NCBI GenBank assembly: GCA_030688545.1
Contig: JAUYHT010000006.1
Location: 180,001 to 212,000, forward strand
DNA: 32,000 bases
Origin: Candidatus Iainarchaeum sp.
Lineage (GTDB): Archaea; Iainarchaeota; Iainarchaeia; Iainarchaeales; VGJJ01
Direction: 5' to 3'
The position numbers and the translations under genes are program-made. The notes under the pieces were generated by a model. It did no database searches. It worked only from the letters and a program-made list of their open reading frames with translations, and was not told where the DNA came from. Positions within the stretch are counted from its first letter, which is position 1. Every line of letters starts with the position of its first letter. This document shows positions 1,558 through 31,639 of this stretch, piece by piece.

Positions 1558-1616
1558 GGCCGTTTTCGTCCGGCCGCACCGAGGGACGTGGGAGGTCATT
1601 GACCTCCCAGCGGCCG
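1558..1616 (+). repeat. tRNA-like module A1 (59 nt), first half of dimeric element E1
   Basis: 5' GGCCGTT and 3' AGCGGCC+G can form a 7-bp acceptor-like stem. Inner hairpin is GGGAGGTC-ATT-GACCTCCC. An alternative local hairpin is GGCCG-N8-CGGCC. The 5' end resembles tRNA-Asp (18667-18737). Confidence 0.6.
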
Positions 1617-1655
1617 GAACAATTTGTTTCATTCCAATGTCCACTTTTCAACCAG

Positions 1656-1714
1656 GGCCGTTTTCGACCGGCCGCACCGAGGGACGAGGGGGATTTACAA
1701 TCCCCCGGCGGCCG
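1656..1714 (+). repeat. tRNA-like module A2 (59 nt), second half of dimeric element E1
   Basis: Same 5' GGCCGTTTTCG..CCGGCCGCACCGAGGGACG core as A1. The inner hairpin sequence differs but still pairs (GGGGGAT-TTACA-ATCCCCC). The 3' GGCGGCC+G closes on GGCCGTT. Confidence 0.6.
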
Positions 1715-1749
1715 CTACGACCCATTTATCGCCAAGATAAAGAAAAACA

Positions 1750-1794
1750 CGTTCGCCCGGCCGCACCGAACCCGGGGTATCTACGAAACCCCTG
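1750..1794 (+). repeat. Degenerate module A3
   Basis: CGTTCGCCCGGCCGCACCGA core followed by hairpin GGGGT-N9-ACCCC. It lacks the 5' GGCCG arm. Confidence 0.4.
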
Positions 1795-1814
1795 AAGAAA
1801 AGATATAGATTAAC

Positions 1815-1858
1815 TCGTCCGGCTGCTCCGAAGGATGAGGGGAATTCTGTAAACCTCT
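1815..1858 (+). repeat. Degenerate module A4
   Basis: TCGTCCGGCTGCTCCGAAGGATG is homologous to the A1 core TCGTCCGGCCGCACCGAGGGACG. It is followed by a weak hairpin AGGGG..CCTCT. Confidence 0.35.
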
Positions 1859-1861
1859 GGA

Positions 1862-1963
1862 AATGACTTCCTCCGCGGCCTAAAGGCCGGGGTATCCATG
1901 CAGAGCTAGAACGTCAATCGGCTCGCGTGATCGCTCGCCCAACAATGGGCGACGAATGTCGCC
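1862..1963 (+). repeat. 102-nt direct repeat, copy B1
   Basis: About 93% identical by eye to 2125-2226 (7 differences counted). It contains hairpins CGGCC-TAAA-GGCCG and GGCGAC-GAAT-GTCGCC. Its 5' end (GACTTCCTCCGCGGCC) resembles the 3' end of module A1 (GACCTCCCAGCGGCC). Confidence 0.7.
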
Positions 1964-7149: not shown

Positions 7150-9480
7150 ATGCCCCCTCGTTTCGCCGCGCGGCATGCTCCGGGCGCCCCTCCCTCTTCC
7201 CAGGCAGCGTTTCGCCCCCCCTCCATCGGCAAGATGTACCGTGACATCCCATCGGCATCGGATGCCCTATTCACCAAGGAAGACTTGTCCATTCCTCCTG
7301 AGCATTGGTTCCTCCGCTTCTGCCGGGACATGTATAAGCGGTTTCCCGGTTTCGGTGCCAATGCTAGTTTCACTCCCCCCTACCAGGAGGCCTTGGATTT
7401 TCTGGGTTGGAAACTGCGTCCGCACGAATTTGCAGCGGCCATCAAAGGGAGTGCCGTTCTCGTGATAGGCGGGGGTTTCATTCTCGCGGTTCTCCTTGGA
7501 CTGGTGTTTGGCACAACTATTGGTCCCCTCTTGGGAGTGGATCCCCTCATCACCATCATCTACCTCTTCATCCCCTTCATCCTCCTCGGTATTTTAGCCG
7601 CGCATGGGGTGCAATCCTTCCCCCTCAAGGAGGCCCAGCGCGAGCAGATGCGCGCCCTCACTTATGTTCCTGATATGGTGGGCTATATGATCATGTCCAT
7701 GAAACTCGTTCCCAATCTCGAGAAAGCCGTTGAGTTCGCGGCCGAACATGGAAAGGGACGCATTTCCTTTGAATTGAGGCGCATCATCTGGAATACGCAG
7801 TTGGGCATCTACAACACCATCGCCGAAGGATTGGATGATCTCGCTTACAAATGGGGAAAATATTCCACCGAATTCAAGCAGGCGTTGATGAATATTCGCG
7901 CGTCAGTATTGGAGAACACCGAGGCCAAGCGCTACCAATTGCTCGACAAGACCATGGAGGATGTCCTTGAAGGGGTGCAGGGAAAGATGGAGCAATATGC
8001 CCGCGAGCTTTCCCAACCGTCCACCGCCCTATTCTATATCGGTGTCCTCCTCCCCCTCATCCTCATCATCATTCTCCCGGTGGGAAGCGCCTTCTCGGGT
8101 TCCCCTTTGGCGCAGCCCTTCATCCTTTTCCTCATCTACAACATCGGCCTCCCTCTGTTAGTTATTTGGTTCGGGATGCAATTGCTGGCTACTCGCCCCC
8201 CCACGTATGTTCCCCCCACGATCCCGGATTCCTATCCGGGTCTTCCTCCCAAGAATATGGTAGAAGTGAACAAATCCCCCATGAACATTTGGGTGGTGGT
8301 TTTAGGCATCCTTCTCGTGGGGGGCGCTATTTCAGGTTACCTCCATTTCTATGGGTTGGGCCTCGGCGATCCCACGGAATCCGGGTCACTCTATTTCCTC
8401 CAGCCCGACAAGACATTGGAAACCGTTCTCTCGGGGGACCGGAAACCATTGGACTGGTTCGAGCCCGGGGGGTCGCGCGAACAGCAGCTAATTGAACAAG
8501 GGTTTTCAGCCGAGCGGGCCACGCAAATAGTCAGCACCGAGAAAGCCCGCTTTTTCGCCCAGGTCGAAAACGATGTCACCCCCACCAATCTTATTTTCGG
8601 TCTGCTCATCACGTTTTCGTTTGCCATTTCTTCTTTCGTGGAATTAACCACGAATGCCAAGCGGCGGATCCAGAAAAAATTCATGGTGATGGAATCCGAA
8701 TTCAAGGACTCATTGTACGTATTGGCCTCCCGCCTCGGGGAAAATAAACCCATCGAGGACGCCCTCCGCCATACGCAGACTTTTCTCCCCAACAATTCCG
8801 TTTCCCAAGAGGTTTTCGGCAAAACGGTGGACAACATTCACGTTTTAGGAATGCCCCTCGAGGCCGCGGTGTTCGACCCCGCCTACGGGAGTTTGAAACA
8901 CAATCCCTCCCGCATGATCACCACCTCGATGAAGATTGCCATCGATTCGGTGCAGTTGGGAGTGGGAGTCGCGGCCCGGACGCTTGTATCATTATCCCGA
9001 CAACTTGCCAATTCCGAGCGCGTGAGCAAGATGCTCACCATTTTGATTAAAGACATCACGGGCACCATGAAGTTGGTTTCGGTGTATATTGCCCCCATCG
9101 TTTTGGGCATCACCACGTCCCTCCAGAGAATCGTGGTCGTTACGCTCGTCAGTATCAACGCCACCTCCGCCGAATCCCAACCCCCTCCCAATCTCGCGGG
9201 AAGCATCCCGGGGTTCGACAGCTTCGGCTCGACGGACATAACCTCTTTTATCAAGCCGGACGTCATCGCCTCACTGGCAACACCGGGGGATTTCATGATC
9301 ATCGTGGCAGTATATGTCATCGAACTGGTGCTCATCATGAACTATTTCATCACCCTCATAGAGGAGAACAATGAACTCTCCGCCCGGCGCCACGCGGCCC
9401 GCGCCCTCCCCATCGCAGTCATCCTCTTCGTGGCGAGCGCCATCCTGTCCAATATATTAGTGGCCGGTAACTTCGGCTAA
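7150..9480 (+). CDS. Type IV pilus/archaellum assembly platform membrane protein (FlaJ/TadC/PilC-like), 776 aa
   Basis: Two T2SS-F-like cytoplasmic helical domains (..YVPDMVGYMIMSMKLVPNLEKAVEFAAEHGKG.. and ..FKDSLYVLASRLGENKPIEDALRHT..) are each followed by TM helices. A Pro-rich insert (TRPPTYVPPTIPDSYPGLPP) and an extra-membrane segment lie between them. The gene follows the ATPase directly. Confidence 0.85.
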   Translation: MPPRFAARHAPGAPPSSQAAFRPPSIGKMYRDIPSASDALFTKEDLSIPPEHWFLRFCRDMYKRFPGFGANASFTPPYQEALDFLGWKLRPHEFAAAIKGSAVLVIGGGFILAVLLGLVFGTTIGPLLGVDPLITIIYLFIPFILLGILAAHGVQSFPLKEAQREQMRALTYVPDMVGYMIMSMKLVPNLEKAVEFAAEHGKGRISFELRRIIWNTQLGIYNTIAEGLDDLAYKWGKYSTEFKQALMNIRASVLENTEAKRYQLLDKTMEDVLEGVQGKMEQYARELSQPSTALFYIGVLLPLILIIILPVGSAFSGSPLAQPFILFLIYNIGLPLLVIWFGMQLLATRPPTYVPPTIPDSYPGLPPKNMVEVNKSPMNIWVVVLGILLVGGAISGYLHFYGLGLGDPTESGSLYFLQPDKTLETVLSGDRKPLDWFEPGGSREQQLIEQGFSAERATQIVSTEKARFFAQVENDVTPTNLIFGLLITFSFAISSFVELTTNAKRRIQKKFMVMESEFKDSLYVLASRLGENKPIEDALRHTQTFLPNNSVSQEVFGKTVDNIHVLGMPLEAAVFDPAYGSLKHNPSRMITTSMKIAIDSVQLGVGVAARTLVSLSRQLANSERVSKMLTILIKDITGTMKLVSVYIAPIVLGITTSLQRIVVVTLVSINATSAESQPPPNLAGSIPGFDSFGSTDITSFIKPDVIASLATPGDFMIIVAVYVIELVLIMNYFITLIEENNELSARRHAARALPIAVILFVASAILSNILVAGNFG

Positions 9481-9501
9481 AACTTTTTGGGAAAAAGTTT
9501 T
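9479..9501. terminator. Palindromic T5 hairpin AAAACTTTTT-GGG-AAAAAGTTTT overlapping the platform stop codon
   Basis: Perfect 10-bp stem with a T5 run on both strands. Oligo-T is the archaeal termination signal. Confidence 0.45.
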
Positions 9502-9678
9502 ATCAAAAAACGAAAAAAAAGAAGGAAAAATGTTTACCAAAAAAAAGGAAGATGCGTGAAAATGCGACCCCGATATCCGTCGACCAATTGGAATACCATA
9601 AATAAAAAGTTTCCTTCATCCGTCAAGAGTACGAAAAGGAATCCAACCAAAACTCCCACATTACCCCACGGCCGAATA

Positions 9679-10152
9679 ATGGGTAACCGGGGGCAAGCCT
9701 TCGAGGCGTACCGCGTGCTCATCGCCGGGGTCATTACCCTCGCGGTGCTCGTGATCATCTTCGGCGCGCTGGGCTATTTCGAATCCCTTCGAGAGGACGC
9801 GAGCTATGAGACGCTGTACACGAGCTGGAAATCCGCCGTGGATTCCCCCAATGGAAAAGTAATCATCGCCTCCAAGCTTGCCTTCACCCAAGGCACTATT
9901 TTCTCCCGCCCTCAATTCGCCAGGCAAGTGAACCTTGAGAACGCATGCATCGCCTTGGAAGCGGAGTCTGCGGCCGGTTATCTTCTCAACGATACCAATC
10001 CCGATGCCCCTTTCATCCAGGTTTCGGGGAATATCCTGGGAAACGTGTATATGCAGTGCCGCCCCGACAATTTCATCTTTACTGACCCCCAGGTGGGATG
10101 CTACGTGTACTGCCTCCTCTCCTTCGGTAAGCCTCTGGCGAATACCCCCTAA
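9679..10152 (+). CDS. Type IV pilin-like protein with class III signal peptide (157 aa)
   Basis: MGNRGQAFEAYRVLIAGVITLAVLVIIFGALGYF has a short basic n-region, an RGQ processing motif and a hydrophobic helix. There are four Cys in the globular part. The track's upstream extension (from 9487) is a Lys-rich translation of an A-rich leader. Confidence 0.65.
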   Translation: MGNRGQAFEAYRVLIAGVITLAVLVIIFGALGYFESLREDASYETLYTSWKSAVDSPNGKVIIASKLAFTQGTIFSRPQFARQVNLENACIALEAESAAGYLLNDTNPDAPFIQVSGNILGNVYMQCRPDNFIFTDPQVGCYVYCLLSFGKPLANTP

Positions 10153-10227
10153 ACGCTGGGTATTCCCCTCTCCCCGGCGGCAACCTTTTTATAGCCAAAA
10201 ACGATGGAAAAGCAGGTGATTGGAGAT

Positions 10228-10746
10228 ATGAATTCCCGAGGACAAACTTTTTCGACGTTTCAGTTGCTTATTTCCGCCATCGTGGCCCTGGCCATTTTGG
10301 TGTTGCTTCTTAATATCCTGGATATAATTCCAAAGCAAGACCAGCAAGTTTCAGTCGAGGCCACTAATCTGATTAAGAGCCAAAATAGTCGCCCCTCTGA
10401 ACTGCGGACCTCATCGAATAAAGTAGTGGTAAAGACCGGTGATTCCCTCAATGCGAAATCGCTCGCGAACCAGTCAGGCTCTCTCACAGAGGAGCAATTA
10501 TGTATTTCAAAAGGAGACTTCGCGAACGTCGATGATTTTGCATTCACAGATGCAGATGGAACCATTCTTCGGTTCAATGGTTCCCAGTTGAGCATAAAGA
10601 TTTCAGTGATTTGCGACACGGGTTCGGAGTTGGAGGGAGATTTACTAACCAACGGAATTTCAGATAACTGGATGGATAGCCCCCAGTGCCAGGATGTTGC
10701 CCAGCTACAACAACAAGGATGTATTGTCGCGTTGCGCTACGCATAA
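10228..10746 (+). CDS. Type IV pilin-like protein with class III signal peptide (172 aa), paralog 1
   Basis: MNSRGQTFSTFQLLISAIVALAILVLLLNIL. GGAG lies 5 nt upstream of ATG 10228. Four conserved Cys are shared with the next gene. Confidence 0.8.
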   Translation: MNSRGQTFSTFQLLISAIVALAILVLLLNILDIIPKQDQQVSVEATNLIKSQNSRPSELRTSSNKVVVKTGDSLNAKSLANQSGSLTEEQLCISKGDFANVDDFAFTDADGTILRFNGSQLSIKISVICDTGSELEGDLLTNGISDNWMDSPQCQDVAQLQQQGCIVALRYA

Positions 10747-10764
10747 TAAAACGAAAGGAGTGAT

Positions 10765-11292
10765 ATGATTATGAATTTCCGAGGACAAGCCTTTTCGACA
10801 TTCCAATTGCTCATCGCGGCCGTGGTGGCGCTCGCCATCTTGGTATTGCTTCTGAATATCATCGGTAGCCTCCCCTTCCTGAGCACCCAAAAACCGTCCA
10901 CTGAATCAGTGAATCTGATCAAATCCCAGGTGAATGAACCCGGGGCCCTACGCACGAGCAACCGTCTCATTTTCGTGAGGGACGATTCCCTGAATACGCG
11001 CGCCATCGCATCTTCTTCAGGAATCCTTACCGAAGCCCAATTGTGTATCTCCAAGGGCGACCATGAAGATACAAGTGAATTCGAGTTCACATCCATCACG
11101 GAAGGGGATGTCCTCCGCTACAATGGCTCCCAATTAGGAGTGAAGATATCCGTCCTCTGCGACACGGGCACCGAACTCCAGGATGATCTCCTCAACAATG
11201 GGATTGATGAGGACTGGTTGGGGAATGAAAAGTGCTCGGACATCTCCCAATTGAACCAAACCGCCTGCGTCATCGTGCTTCGCTTCGCCTGA
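10765..11292 (+). CDS. Type IV pilin-like protein with class III signal peptide, paralog 2 (tandem duplicate)
   Basis: M(IM)NFRGQAFSTFQLLIAAVVALAILVLLLNII. AGGAG lies upstream, and ATG 10771 is equally possible. It is collinear with 10228-10746 (..LTE.QLCISKGD..NGSQL..KISV.CDTG.EL..DLL.NGI..). Confidence 0.8.
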   Translation: MIMNFRGQAFSTFQLLIAAVVALAILVLLLNIIGSLPFLSTQKPSTESVNLIKSQVNEPGALRTSNRLIFVRDDSLNTRAIASSSGILTEAQLCISKGDHEDTSEFEFTSITEGDVLRYNGSQLGVKISVLCDTGTELQDDLLNNGIDEDWLGNEKCSDISQLNQTACVIVLRFA

Positions 11293-11349
11293 CCGCTTTC
11301 GAGCGGTCGTCCCGATGGACGTGGGAGGTCGTTGACCTCCCAGCGGCCG
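11291..11349 (+). repeat. tRNA-like module A5 (59 nt), first half of dimeric element E2; starts inside the pilin stop codon
   Basis: GACCGCTTTCGAGCGGTCGTCCCGATGGACGTGGGAGGTCGTTGACCTCCCAGCGGCCG aligns to A1 without gaps. Paired substitutions keep the 5' hairpin intact (GACCGC/GCGGTC versus GGCCG/CGGCC). Confidence 0.6.
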
Positions 11350-11368
11350 AAATGATTTGTGTTCTAAT

Positions 11369-11390
11369 GGCCGTTTCGTCCAGCGGCACG
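11369..11390 (+). repeat. Fragment A6 resembling the 5' 22 nt of tRNA-Asp
   Basis: GGCCGTTTCGTCCAGCGGCACG versus tRNA-Asp GCCCGTTTCGTCTAGCGGTAGG gives 18 of 22 identical by eye. Confidence 0.5.
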
Positions 11391-11398
11391 CTTTCGAT

Positions 11399-11457
11399 GG
11401 CCGTTTTCGTCCGGCCGCCCCGAGGGACGAAGGAGGGTTACACCCTCCCGGCGGCCT
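11399..11457 (+). repeat. tRNA-like module A7 (59 nt), second half of dimeric element E2
   Basis: GGCCGTTTTCGTCCGGCCGCCCCGAGGGACG core, inner hairpin GGAGGGT-TAC-ACCCTCC, and 3' GGCGGCC closing on GGCCGTT. Confidence 0.6.
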
Positions 11458-11548
11458 TAATATTCAGTTTAATCCGGAGCCACGCGTCCTATTCGAATGG
11501 CAGAACCAAAAAAGAAGTCTTTAATTTCCCGTCAAGCCCCATAAACGC

Positions 11549-11555
11549 TTAATAA
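11549..11555 (+). promoter_or_regulatory. TATA-like box (ttaataa) for the small class III signal-peptide ORF
   Basis: Centre lies ~25 nt upstream of ATG 11577, the same leaderless spacing seen at other genes here. Confidence 0.4.
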
Positions 11556-11789: not shown

Positions 11790-12386
11790 ATGCCCGGAAA
11801 GAATCACCCCCTCCCAGTCCCGCCTCCGAGGGTCAGGAGACCCATGCCTACTGTCAAAAATAGAGTTGCCGCAGGGCTCGCCGCCATTGGATTGGGATTA
11901 TTTGCCGGCAGGATGACTTATAGCTATTCCCACGGTAAGTCATTCCACGTCCATTCCAGAGCAATGCAAGCCAGGATAGACCGACACCAAAATCCGACCC
12001 TCCATGATCTGATGCAGGTTTTGAGCAAGCCCGATGCGGATCGAATCGCCGCGTTGTCCGCGTCGCTTTACTTAAAAGCCCAGAAAGATTCAGCCTTGAT
12101 GAATAAAATGGCGAAGCAGGCCACCGAGACAGGAAAATACGACGTCAACCAACTCCCCCTCGACACGATCACATCTTTTTTCACCCCGGCCCAGCAGAGC
12201 GAGTTATCGAAATTAGCCGAAAATTATCCGACGGAACTTGTTAATTGGTCTAAGATTCATTTCCCCAAGCTGATCCAGAAGAGCAGGAAACGGGCGCGAG
12301 ACACCGGAGTCGCCGTCGGGATAATGGTAGGATTATTAGGTTTGGCGATTATCGATGGGGTGTTATCCCAACGAACAGAGAAATAA
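11790..12386 (+). CDS. Hypothetical protein with hydrophobic segments near both termini
   Basis: ATG 11790 sits ~27 nt downstream of TATA-like ctatttag (11759-11766). The track start GTG 11766 is less likely. No family recognised. Confidence 0.45.
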   Translation: MPGKNHPLPVPPPRVRRPMPTVKNRVAAGLAAIGLGLFAGRMTYSYSHGKSFHVHSRAMQARIDRHQNPTLHDLMQVLSKPDADRIAALSASLYLKAQKDSALMNKMAKQATETGKYDVNQLPLDTITSFFTPAQQSELSKLAENYPTELVNWSKIHFPKLIQKSRKRARDTGVAVGIMVGLLGLAIIDGVLSQRTEK

Positions 12387-18666: not shown

Positions 18667-18737
18667 CGCCCGCTCCGGGAATCGAACCCGGGCCTCCACC
18701 GTGACAGGGTGGAATCCTACCGCTAGACGAAACGGGC
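18667..18737 (-). tRNA. tRNA-Asp (anticodon GTC), 71 nt, no intron, CCA not encoded
   Basis: Hand-folded cloverleaf: acceptor GCCCGTT/AGCGGGC, D arm GTCT-AGCGGTA-GGAT, anticodon arm CCACC-CTGTCAC-GGTGG, 4-nt variable region, T arm CCGGG-TTCGATT-CCCGG, discriminator G. Confidence 0.85.
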
Positions 18738-18758
18738 CGCTTTCGATCGGCCGCACCG
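18735..18758 (+). repeat. Module fragment A8 on the opposite strand, overlapping the first 3 nt of tRNA-Asp
   Basis: GGCCGCTTTCGATCGGCCGCACCG contains the module 5' hairpin (GGCCG-N8-CGGCC) plus the GCACCG core. Confidence 0.45.
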
Positions 18759-18792
18759 TGGAACATGGAGAGATTCACGAAGCGTTTTTCGC

Positions 18793-18813
18793 GAGCCTTT
18801 TCCTAAAAGGCTC
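18793..18813. repeat. Palindromic T-run hairpin GAGCCTTTT-CCT-AAAAGGCTC
   Basis: Same hairpin family as 1975-2124. It lies in the tRNA-Asp upstream region. Confidence 0.5.
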
Positions 18814-18864
18814 CTTCGAATCCTCGGTGGGCCGAACGTAACTACAAAGAATCGTGAAAAAAGC

Positions 18865-27959: not shown

Positions 27960-28163
27960 ATGGCAGTTAATGAGCACGGGCGGAATGTTCTTGACAAGGA
28001 CCTCGAGAACGACCTGAAAGCGCACATCCATATGGCGAAAGAATATGCGCGTGAGCAGGATATGCGTTTCAAGTCGGCGGTGGGGGCCCACCCCTATGCA
28101 TTCGTAGCGGGGGCATTTGTCGGGGGCATGCTGGTGGGCGCATTAATGTCCAAGAAGGGGTAA
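27960..28163 (+). CDS. C-tail-anchored small protein, DUF883 (YqjD/ElaB)-like
   Basis: A 67-aa helical N-terminus is followed by ..HPYAFVAGAFVGGMLVGALMSKKG. GAGGTGA lies 6 nt upstream of ATG 27960. Paralog of 31403-31639. Confidence 0.6.
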   Translation: MAVNEHGRNVLDKDLENDLKAHIHMAKEYAREQDMRFKSAVGAHPYAFVAGAFVGGMLVGALMSKKG

Positions 28164-28166
28164 GGG

Positions 28167-28490
28167 ATGCGGATAACCCCCATCATTTCCCAATTCCTGA
28201 AAGGACTTAAAAGTGCCTTCATCGCGGCAGCGGGACTGCGGACCTCCTTTTCAGAGGCCATCGCGGATGGAATTTCCACCGGGTGGGACCGCGTGTCCCC
28301 TCGCCTCATGAAGCAAGTGATTATCGGGGCAGTCCTCGTCACCGGGGTCGTATGGCTGGGCTTCGGTCTCGGAAAGCTGGTTGAATCCCTCCTATGGAAC
28401 ACCCCTGGTTTGGGACATATCCTGGTTGGATTGGTATTCCTCCTGGGGGGAGGGTGGTATTTGGCCACCCAGCCGACCGGGGTAAAGTAA
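28167..28490 (+). CDS. Two-TM small membrane protein, YqjE/'holin-X' (PF07332-like)
   Basis: Starts 3 nt after the previous stop. Two hydrophobic hairpin helices are present (..VIIGAVLVTGVVWLGFGL.. and ..GHILVGLVFLLGGGWYL..). Paralog of 31088-31399. Confidence 0.55.
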   Translation: MRITPIISQFLKGLKSAFIAAAGLRTSFSEAIADGISTGWDRVSPRLMKQVIIGAVLVTGVVWLGFGLGKLVESLLWNTPGLGHILVGLVFLLGGGWYLATQPTGVK

Positions 28491-31087: not shown

Positions 31088-31399
31088 TTATTTTTGCAAA
31101 TTCAAATATAGGTATCCGCTCGCCACAAAAAAGAAACCTATAACTATAAATCCAATCCCGGGGGTCGCGATCAGTGGTTCGAGCCAGGTGGCTAATCCAA
31201 ACCCCACCAAAAGAATTCCCGTTAGAAGGACGGCACCCACTATCATGTTTTTCAAGAGTAGAGGCATCGACCGTGCGATTCCGACTTCTATGCCATCCGA
31301 AATAGAGGAAGAAATAGCTCCCTTTACCGTTTCCGCACGAAGGAGGATGATACTCCCCAGTCCTTTGATGATGGCTCCAATGCTACTCGACAAGCTCAC
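31088..31399 (-). CDS. YqjE/'holin-X'-like two-TM protein, paralog of 28167-28490
   Basis: GTG start 3 nt after the upstream stop, the same spacing as in the other cassette. ..MIVGAVLLTGILLVGFGL..GIGFIVIGFFFVASGYLYL.. aligns with the paralog. Confidence 0.55.
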   Translation of the reverse strand: MSLSSSIGAIIKGLGSIILLRAETVKGAISSSISDGIEVGIARSMPLLLKNMIVGAVLLTGILLVGFGLATWLEPLIATPGIGFIVIGFFFVASGYLYLNLQK

Positions 31400-31402
31400 C
31401 GT

Positions 31403-31639
31403 TTATCCCTTCTTCGAGATGAGCGCCCCGATTAACAAGCCGCCAAGAAATGCTCCAATGACAAATTCAAAGGGACGTTCGCTCACAGCATGTTCAACCA
31501 TGGATTGCTTCTTCTTCACGTATGTGTGCGCGCCATGAACATTTGCATTAATCTGCTTGCGCGCATCATCTAAATTTGAATTAATTTGCTCCTCGAAATG
31601 TTTATCGAGAATACGTCCTTCCACCATTTTTGTAGTCAT
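31403..31639 (-). CDS. DUF883 (YqjD/ElaB)-like C-tail-anchored protein, paralog of 27960-28163
   Basis: ..RPFEFVIGAFLGGLLIGALISKKG compares with ..HPYAFVAGAFVGGMLVGALMSKKG. Both genes have AAAACGAGGT upstream. Confidence 0.6.
   Translation of the reverse strand: MTTKMVEGRILDKHFEEQINSNLDDARKQINANVHGAHTYVKKKQSMVEHAVSERPFEFVIGAFLGGLLIGALISKKG

Follow-up and report, generated by a model that had tools for sequence, protein, structure and literature searches.

Two-Hairpin 59-nt Modules in a Candidatus Diapherotrites Archaeon: A Lineage-Restricted Interspersed Repeat and Its Apparent Resemblance to tRNA-Asp

Introduction

The genomes of DPANN archaea are small and tightly packed, and the repeat families on record for them are few. 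The stretch considered here, 32,000 nucleotides (nt) from a Candidatus Diapherotrites (DPANN) archaeon (Candidatus Iainarchaeum sp., GCA_030688545.1, contig JAUYHT010000006.1, positions 180,001 to 212,000; hereafter the window), encodes an archaeal GatD and carries near its left end an array of 59-nt modules, which an initial annotation read as derivatives of the local tRNA-Asp that have lost the T arm. What, then, are these modules: remnants of a tRNA, a structured RNA maintained by the host, protein-binding sites in DNA, or a repeat that has multiplied between genes?

The modules belong to a repeat family that has nine copies in 32 kb, distributed over three loci, with the plus strand carrying eight and the minus strand one. 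The family has a definite copy structure, a distribution restricted to this lineage, and two hairpins that are both conserved. With slightly better than even confidence, we favour the reading that they are a young, species-specific, GC-rich, non-coding, interspersed structured repeat, akin to repetitive extragenic palindromic (REP) sequences and bacterial interspersed mosaic elements (BIMEs), or to MITEs (miniature inverted-repeat transposable elements) and palindrome-associated transposable elements (PATEs). Duplication or transposition would have dispersed the family, and its copies might act at the RNA level, if at all, as stem-loops in transcripts.

Architecture of the Repeat Family

The full unit consists, in order, of hairpin 1 (GGCCG/CGGCC with a UUCG-containing loop), a single-stranded conserved core GCACCGAGGGACG, hairpin 2 and a GCGGCC tail, which is able to pair with either arm of hairpin 1. 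In copy A1 (1558..1616, plus strand; nhmmer E 2e-19; covariance-model score 88.2 bits), the layout from 5' to 3' is X (GGCCG), the loop UUUUCGUC, Y (CGGCCGC), the core ACCGAGGGACG, hairpin 2 and Z (AGCGGCCG). Hairpin 2 of A1 is of type 1, GGGAGGUC-AUU-GACCUCCC, and that of A2 (1656..1714, plus strand; E 4e-18; 85.8 bits) is of type 2, GGGGGAU-UUACA-AUCCCCC. The description of these two copies in the initial annotation, comprising their positions, their length of 59 nt, the common start GGCCGTT, the 3' ends AGCGGCCG or GGCGGCCG, i.e., (A/G)GCGGCCG, and the hairpin arms GGGAGGTC/GACCTCCC and GGGGGAT/ATCCCCC in DNA letters, agrees with the sequence throughout. Together with the spacer between them (1617..1655, plus strand), they form dimer A.

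Five further copies lie elsewhere in the window (B1, B1.5, B2, C and D). Dimer B begins with the full module B1 (11291..11349, plus strand; E 8e-18; 81.3 bits), which starts within the TGA stop codon of the gene at 10765-11292, its first two bases being GA. Hairpin 1 of B1 is remodelled to GACCGCU-UUCG-AGCGGUC, and its hairpin 2 is of type 1. It is followed by a spacer (11350..11368, plus strand; AAATGATTTGTGTTCTAAT) homologous to that of dimer A, of which the 5' part, GAACAATTTGTTTCATTCCAATG, is the matching portion, by a 30-nt fragment, B1.5 (11369..11398, plus strand; GGCCGTTTCGTCCAGCGGCAC; p = 0.0005 against A1), which covers just the first ~22 nt of a module, and by the full module B2 (11399..11457, plus strand; E 8e-18; 82.5 bits). 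The type-2 hairpin of B2, GGAGGGU-UAC-ACCCUCC, differs from that of A2 by compensatory changes. Dimers A and B align end to end over ~160 nt, spacer included, with 82% column identity.

The remaining copies are decayed or partial. A3 (1749..1794, plus strand; E 0.1) retains TTCG, Y, ACCGA and a weak G/C hairpin without X and Z, and A4 (1813..1881, plus strand; E 1.8e-4; covariance-model alignment 18.2 bits) combines the core TCGTCCGGCTGCTCCGAAGGATG with an enlarged region of hairpin 2 and with CCGCGGCC, a Z-like stretch overlapping the beginning of a second repeat, D1. Both align to A1 and A2 better than 2000 of 2000 shuffles, and the decayed copies that had been noted near 1750-1794 and 1815-1858 are thus real. 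Copy C (18735..18776, plus strand; E 3.4e-6; covariance model 28.3 bits, E 0.004; better than 2000/2000 shuffles) has X, the UUCG loop, Y and the core, without hairpin 2 and Z. The sole minus-strand copy, D (18793..18845), is unreported by nhmmer and aligns to A1 better than 2000/2000 shuffles (to B2, p = 0.001); its core TTACGTTCGGCC-CACCGAGG (~18841-18822) is followed by the hairpin GAGCC-TTTT-AGG-AAAA-GGCTC, and it lies ~90 nt upstream of tRNA-Asp. Since the 3' strand is missing from C and B1.5, which have hairpin 1, and since A3, A4 and D have retained nothing but the internal core TTCG-NC-CGGCCGC-ACCGAGG and the downstream hairpin, the presumed acceptor strands are the least conserved parts of the module.

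That the repeat is genuine is borne out by the search statistics. The full-copy hidden Markov model (HMM), run with nhmmer, gave E values of 2e-19 to 8e-18 for the four full copies; a 23-nt core pattern matched three times in the window against 0.00 expected, and a 13-nt core five times against 0.14 expected. Shuffle controls were dinucleotide shuffles, 2000 per test. No additional copies emerged when the covariance model was run, unfiltered, over the window in full, and no Rfam family matches the 59-nt modules. A coding sequence was rejected in view of the compensatory stem substitutions and of the absence of a reading frame common to the loci, as the open reading frames spanning A (1185-1808) and B (11232-11552) use different module phases. 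Three other identities were rejected at this level. The copy-to-copy spacing of 98, 89 and 62 nt, the homology of the 'spacers' between loci and the lack of Cas domains in the window are incompatible with a CRISPR array. The differences between A1 and B1 are not adenine-specific and the window has no reverse transcriptase, which excludes a template/variable repeat pair of a diversity-generating retroelement. An integron attC site was rejected because there are no cassettes between the units and their ends appear to depart from the R''/R' consensus.

The identities among full copies are mosaic. Outside hairpin 2, the frames of A1, A2 and B2 are identical at 36-37 of 38 positions (A1 versus A2, 37/38), and that of B1 agrees with the other full copies at 30-31 of 38 (A1 versus B1, 30/38). 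In hairpin 2, A1 and B1 share 20 of 21 positions, A2 and B2 14 of 21, and A1 and A2 only 10 of 21. This pattern suggests recombination among copies. Because the identity is mosaic and the dimers are homologous along their full length, the unit copied would have been a dimer of a type-1 and a type-2 module, whose segments have been exchanged since.

Folding and Covariation

Covariation was assessed on the four full copies (A1, A2, B1 and B2), for which power is low. Hairpin 2 consists of a stem of 8 bp topped by a loop of 3 nt (5 nt in A2, with the last pair open), and four of its eight pairs are changed on both sides; the covariation first reported for this hairpin between A1 and A2 holds across the four full copies. 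The rest of the module is more ambiguous, in that X (1-5), Y (14-20) and Z (53-59) are all mutually complementary, with X:Y, X:Z and Y:Z paired at 96-100% over their GGCC cores (96% of the X:Z cells). Among isolated 59-mers, X:Z is the optimum for A1, A2 and B2 by 0.1-3.4 kcal/mol, B1 favours X:Y by 5.7 kcal/mol, and A1 with short flanks folds as Y:Z instead. The RNAalifold consensus is X:Z, and folding z-scores range from -1.0 to -3.3. Since the optimum varies with copy and flanks, thermodynamics cannot settle the fold, and the substitution pattern alone discriminates.

The divergent copy B1 is the informative one. In hairpin 1 (1-6 with 13-18), its G2-C17 pair has become A2-U17 and the U6/C13 juxtaposition has become C6-G13, so that pairs 2:17 and 6:13 are compensatory. 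When the eight frame substitutions of B1 were placed randomly, two complementary double changes arose in this helix with P = 0.0015, or P = 0.006 if any of four candidate helices was allowed. In the X:Z stem (1-7 with 52-58), four pairs are invariant, two vary one-sidedly and one is broken in B1, with zero double changes; its variation amounts to two G-U/G-C or A-U/G-U alternations plus an A-C mismatch in B1, and the very substitution that breaks X:Z there is compensated in hairpin 1. Likewise, the T12-to-A change in A2, B1 and C disrupts a 'D-arm-like' pairing (10-14/27-31) and creates a U7-A12 pair closing the UUCG tetraloop of hairpin 1, and UUCG is conserved in every copy having that loop. 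The substitution pattern points to the local hairpin (X:Y). The initial annotation had left the choice between an acceptor-like stem and this competing hairpin open; the indecision is real as far as energies go, but the compensatory changes of B1 favour the local hairpin. As for the 7-bp acceptor-like stem itself, pairing is possible and is the thermodynamic optimum in three of the four full copies when taken as isolated 59-mers, but the stem shows no compensatory change and has a broken pair in B1.

These data bear directly on the possibility that the modules are a structured RNA selected by the host and read from the plus strand, either a cis-acting element of untranslated regions (UTRs) or spacers or a small RNA, in which the alternative pairings X:Y, Y:Z and X:Z could provide a conformational switch or a platform for protein binding around the core. 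Covariation in both hairpins, the conserved UUCG motif, the folding z-scores, the near invariance of the frame among A1, A2 and B2, and the narrow difference of 0.1-5.7 kcal/mol by which copies differ in their favoured closing helix all speak for it. In addition, the variation in X:Z and Y:Z is all of the G-C to G-U kind, which stays paired on the plus strand only. Taken with the UUCG loop and with the eight of nine copies on the plus strand, these alternations hint at a plus-strand RNA. Against it, no relative that was examined carries the family, not even at 82% protein identity, half of the copies are truncated or decayed, and the covariation is drawn from four full sequences and largely from one divergent copy. 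Orientation relative to neighbouring transcription is also inconsistent, being antisense at locus A, sense at locus B and on both strands at the tRNA locus, and none of B1, A2 and C is preceded by an archaeal TATA box at a fitting distance. We regard such an RNA as unlikely. Guide RNAs of the C/D-box or H/ACA type were rejected since, by inspection, the modules have no C (RUGAUGA) or D (CUGA) boxes.

Comparison with tRNA-Asp

The tRNA-Asp(GUC) gene at 18667-18737 on the minus strand is the sole tRNA in the window, and its location, its acceptor strands GCCCGTT/AGCGGGC and its discriminator G are as first reported. The proposal to be weighed is that the modules are tRNA-Asp derivatives with an acceptor-like stem plus arms and without a T arm, serving as processing signals for RNase P and tRNase Z or constituting a tRNA-derived short interspersed element (SINE) or MITE. 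Several features can be cited in its favour: X:Z is the minimum-energy fold of isolated A1, A2 and B2 as well as the RNAalifold consensus, most of its cells are paired, and the partial copy C abuts the 5' end of the tRNA gene. The first 13 nt of the module do match the tRNA-Asp 5' end at 12 of 13 positions with one gap, as had been pointed out. Local alignments of A1, A2, B1 and B2 with tRNA-Asp score 12-16, where dinucleotide shuffles average ~15 (p = 0.37-0.97); such an outcome had been named beforehand as one that speaks against the proposal.

Dedicated detectors give the same answer. The Rfam tRNA model (RF00005) had zero matches on the modules at E<=10 in search spaces of 1.2 kb and 0.37 kb, and at the gathering score only the genuine tRNA-Asp is found. 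ARAGORN reports nothing at loci A and B in its default and mitochondrial (-mt) modes, and under relaxed settings (ps80-90) its calls contradict one another, fall on either strand and disregard the module boundaries. In place of the 5-bp stem and 7-nt loop of an anticodon arm, hairpin 2 has an 8-bp stem and a loop of 3-5 nt, and because of this geometry it is unable to present an anticodon. The X:Z stem lacks compensatory change, and the substitution behind its A-C mismatch in B1 is compensated in the rival hairpin 1; X and Z are missing in A3, A4 and D; and C lies head-to-head with tRNA-Asp, on the opposite strand, the first 3 bp of the tRNA being common to both. The reading of the modules as T-arm-less tRNA-Asp derivatives is not supported, and we consider it very improbable. 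It also provides a caution, namely that GGCC-based palindromes can mimic an acceptor stem.

One fragment keeps a more distant connection in play. B1.5 matches tRNA-Asp positions 3-18 at 15 of 16 nt, the best non-self match on both strands of the window (64 kb). Its score of 27 was reached by 0 of 2000 shuffles, but barely exceeds the best chance match in the window, which scores 25, and the fragment resembles the first 22 nt of the module just as closely (p = 0.0005). Given this match and the position of C next to the tRNA gene, the family may have arisen distantly from the 5' end of tRNA-Asp or have recombined with it. At its most elaborate, such an origin would make the family a prokaryotic counterpart of tRNA-derived SINEs, seeded by the acceptor/D region at the tRNA-Asp 5' end, B1.5 being its least altered remnant and C standing at the locus of origin; the seed would have refolded into the UUCG hairpin and would propagate as a 160-nt dimer, and its plus-strand RNA might toggle, as a regulatory switch, among the three mutually exclusive GGCC helices. 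We think this scenario improbable.

The tRNA gene has a peculiarity of its own. Upstream of it on the minus strand (18738-18800) there is no TATA-like box at -25 to -35, and the orthologous tRNA-Asp genes of two relatives (L039 and L045) have TTTAAAAT or TTTTTAAT at this distance. The partial module C fills the promoter space of the gene, and the tRNA is therefore probably transcribed with a longer 5' leader. An alignment of the tRNA-Asp upstream regions for the insertion boundaries of C was too diverged to inform.

Distribution and Recent Origin

Syntenic relatives, with orthologous proteins 60-82% identical, share the gene order of surface protein, archaeosortase and pilus-type ATPase, on through the 175-aa and 54-aa proteins, and their intergenic regions are short and contain zero copies. 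At locus A, a 70-nt spacer in relatives corresponds to ~830 nt of non-coding repeats in the window, plus an extra adjoining 48-aa gene; at locus B, spacers of 44 or 14 nt correspond to 284 nt. An HMM search of eleven related loci found no module, including relatives in which the AI-2E transporter is 75% and 82% identical. When a degenerate 24-nt pattern (19 specified bases) was used to scan 185,579 GTDB species genomes and the JGI metagenomes, it returned isolated chance matches in GC-rich bacteria, and in IMG/VR viral contigs zero matches. Because relatives are without copies and the scans of collections give chance matches only, the family is, as far as these comparisons reach, a recent, lineage-specific expansion. 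Neither Rfam nor the collections that were searched had this sequence family.

Assembly error does not account for the repeats at locus B, since this locus, B1 included, is identical in an independent NCBI assembly (L049). Short-read contigs of this organism in Logan break off precisely at locus A, at B1/B2 and at one more repeat immediately beyond the window, as is typical of multi-copy sequences. The fallback offered in the initial annotation, an interspersed repeat of MITE or SINE type, fits these observations: the family occurs at several loci, relatives are without it, and short-read assemblies break at its copies. An integrated element bounded by att sites was considered, as dimers A and B flank 9.7 kb, and was rejected because the enclosed archaeosortase/pilus-type ATPase cluster is native and syntenic in repeat-free relatives.

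The Interspersed-Repeat Reading and Its Weak Points

In the reading that we favour, a ~160-nt head-to-tail dimer (type-1 module, spacer, type-2 module) would have spread between loci into intergenic DNA. Tandem duplication, decay or truncation (A3, A4, C, D and B1.5) and partial homogenisation by gene conversion would have followed insertion. The insertions would be selfish or nearly neutral, with stable hairpins kept perhaps because the propagation machinery needs them, because the RNA stem-loops have a mild effect, or both. If transcribed, as B1 and B2 may be in the 3' UTR of the gene at 10765-11292, the copies would act at most as stem-loops affecting 3'-end stability or read-through.

Several points weigh against this interpretation. 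Dimers A and B have no terminal inverted repeats, target-site duplications or common flanking tetranucleotide; by inspection, their ends have only GGCCG/CGGCC in common, and the flanks ATAAAG...CTACGA and GCCT...TTAATA contain no duplication. As to mobilisation, the gene content of the window includes no transposase, RAYT, TnpB, integrase, Cas, reverse transcriptase or Orc1/Cdc6. In A1, A2 and B2, a nearly identical frame beside a fast-changing hairpin 2 could instead be due to purifying selection on a functional sequence, and the conserved UUCG loop and the several G-U pairs possible on the plus strand only are hints of selection at the RNA level. Finally, the census of copies covers the 32-kb window and 2 kb beyond it.

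Another way to account for the conserved core is protein binding at the DNA level, with a 20-nt core (dyad CGGCCG, ACCGAGG and a G-run) serving as an operator or a site like the origin recognition boxes (ORBs) of archaea, and the 830-nt region at locus A serving as a regulatory region or origin. The core is the part that every partial copy still has, A1 adjoins the surface-protein gene's TATA box, and locus A, with its AT-rich palindromes, is unusually long for non-coding DNA in a genome this compact. The order of a dyad, an ~11-nt spacer and a G-string may resemble that of archaeal ORB elements. This proposal nevertheless meets with a window that has no orc1/cdc6 or other replication gene, a GC skew that shows no inflection, repeats that are direct instead of inverted pairs around an unwinding element, and the absence of the region from the syntenic site in relatives; on the same four grounds, an ORB-type replication origin in particular was rejected. 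Compensatory hairpin changes are, moreover, unexpected for simple duplex binding sites. We give this reading a slender chance, somewhat below that of the SINE-like scenario.

Neighbouring Repeats and Genes

A second repeat family, D1, ~100 nt long, occurs at 1862-1963 and 2125-2226 (93% identical), with a third, more diverged copy ~2 kb beyond the right end of the window (L050:1-100); D1 is absent from relatives. The minus strands of the first two copies, D1a and D1b, match the Rfam family HgcC (RF00062) weakly, at 19 and 15 bits (E 0.08 and 1.1) against a gathering score of 50. HgcC, an archaeal GC-rich non-coding RNA, shares a motif with the right-end RNAs of IS1341/TnpB elements and with PATEs (PMC4615843). 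The likeness lies in the 3' hairpin of D1a/D1b, CCCCGGCC-UUUA-GGCCGCGG, and its GGAGGAAGUCA tail. The 5' two-thirds of D1 is unaligned, the third D1 copy is unmatched, and the 59-nt modules are themselves without an Rfam match.

This neighbourhood is relevant to the idea that the modules are non-autonomous remnants of the IS200/IS605 type (PATE- or REPIN-like), in which a transposase acting in trans would bind the sub-terminal hairpins and mobilise the elements as single-stranded DNA. Head-to-tail dimers of similar hairpin modules on one strand may resemble the left-end/right-end layout of the IS200/IS605 family. The eight of nine copies on the plus strand and the HgcC matches of D1 would suit such an origin, but the strand bias comes from three loci only, the HgcC matches are far below the gathering score with the third D1 copy unmatched, the two dimers have no conserved left-flank tetranucleotide, and the window is without tnpA or tnpB. 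We hold it improbable, to about the same degree as the SINE-like scenario.

Perfect palindromes of the form [GC clamp]-TTTT(T)-loop-AAAA-[GC clamp] lie at 1975-1996, 2014-2034, 2055-2077, 2102-2124, 9478-9502 and 18793-18813, four of them stacked in tandem in locus A and one sitting on the stop codon of a 776-aa gene. Their clamps vary compensatorily, and because a T-tract is present on both strands they look like bidirectional archaeal terminators. Between A1 and the surface-protein gene there is a palindromic TATA box, TTTATAAA (1548-1555), whose distance is more in keeping with a nearly leaderless start at the second ATG (1520) than with one at the first (1535). A search for homologues of the truncated surface protein gave no match. 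Four paralogous genes of ~157-180 aa (9679-11292 and 11844-12386) have no Pfam match; dimer B is inserted within their run, and the family is conserved across Diapherotrites relatives (74 homologues). In one relative (L045:577-4428), the gene for the pilus-type ATPase (T2SSE) contains an intein with a LAGLIDADG endonuclease domain, which the orthologue in the window does not have. Two inverted paralogous clusters of small membrane proteins (67/78, 107/103 and 59 aa), at 27960-28490 (plus strand) and 31088-31639 (minus strand), flank an AT-rich stretch of 36-44% GC at 29-32 kb.

Significance

The ~830 nt of stacked repeats at locus A, against 70 nt in relatives, show that selfish or structural repeats are still able to expand in small and tightly packed genomes. 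In practical terms, the repeats explain the fragmentation of short-read assemblies of this organism at these sites, and individual copies could be useful for telling strains apart. The family bears on no long-standing question unless a tRNA origin or an RNA switch holds.

Comparison with Known Systems

Measured against tRNAs, arm-less tRNAs and tRNA-derived SINEs, the modules have in common a possible 7-bp closing stem followed by G, but they are without a T arm or a 7-nt anticodon loop, and covariation favours another fold. With MITEs and PATEs they share the character of a small non-autonomous repeat, ~160 nt per dimer, at several intergenic loci, missing in close relatives and breaking short-read assemblies; they differ in that terminal inverted repeats are limited to GGCCG, that there is no target-site duplication or common flanking target, the left flanks differing in the two dimers available, and that the window has no cognate transposase.

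REP sequences and BIMEs are, along with MITE-type elements, the nearest parallels. The modules are short, GC-rich, hairpin-forming, non-coding and intergenic, and are clustered in composite arrays; like REPs, which are often found directly 3' of a stop codon, B1 starts at one, and both have lineage-specific sequences whose stems are kept by compensatory change. The differences lie in size and design, as a module is 59 nt with two hairpins and a 13-nt single-stranded conserved core, and a REP is one palindrome of 20-40 nt. The array members are arranged head-to-tail, and head-to-tail dimers are rare in REP families (PMC3733652). GTAG tags are missing from the modules, CGTC is limited to A1, B2 and A4, and the window has no RAYT gene or Y1 transposase. 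The consensus of CGTC-tagged REPs has a stem of 8-9 bp that begins with A-T pairs and a loop of 4-5 nt (PMC3733652); the module stems depart from it, and this identity was rejected on stem and loop geometry.

The modules depart from the formal definitions of REP, MITE, CRISPR, attC and ORB wherever these could be tested, and as regards PATEs the left flanks of the two dimers differ and the window has no tnpA or tnpB; the modules are REP-, MITE- and PATE-like in behaviour and are filed under none of these names. REPs and BIMEs belong to bacteria, and REP-like palindromes have also been reported computationally in archaea (PMC3733652, PMC2817692, PMC12306157). The kind of element to which the family is likened is accordingly a known one, that of lineage-specific interspersed hairpin repeats described in bacteria and, computationally, in archaea (PMC3733652, PMC12306157).

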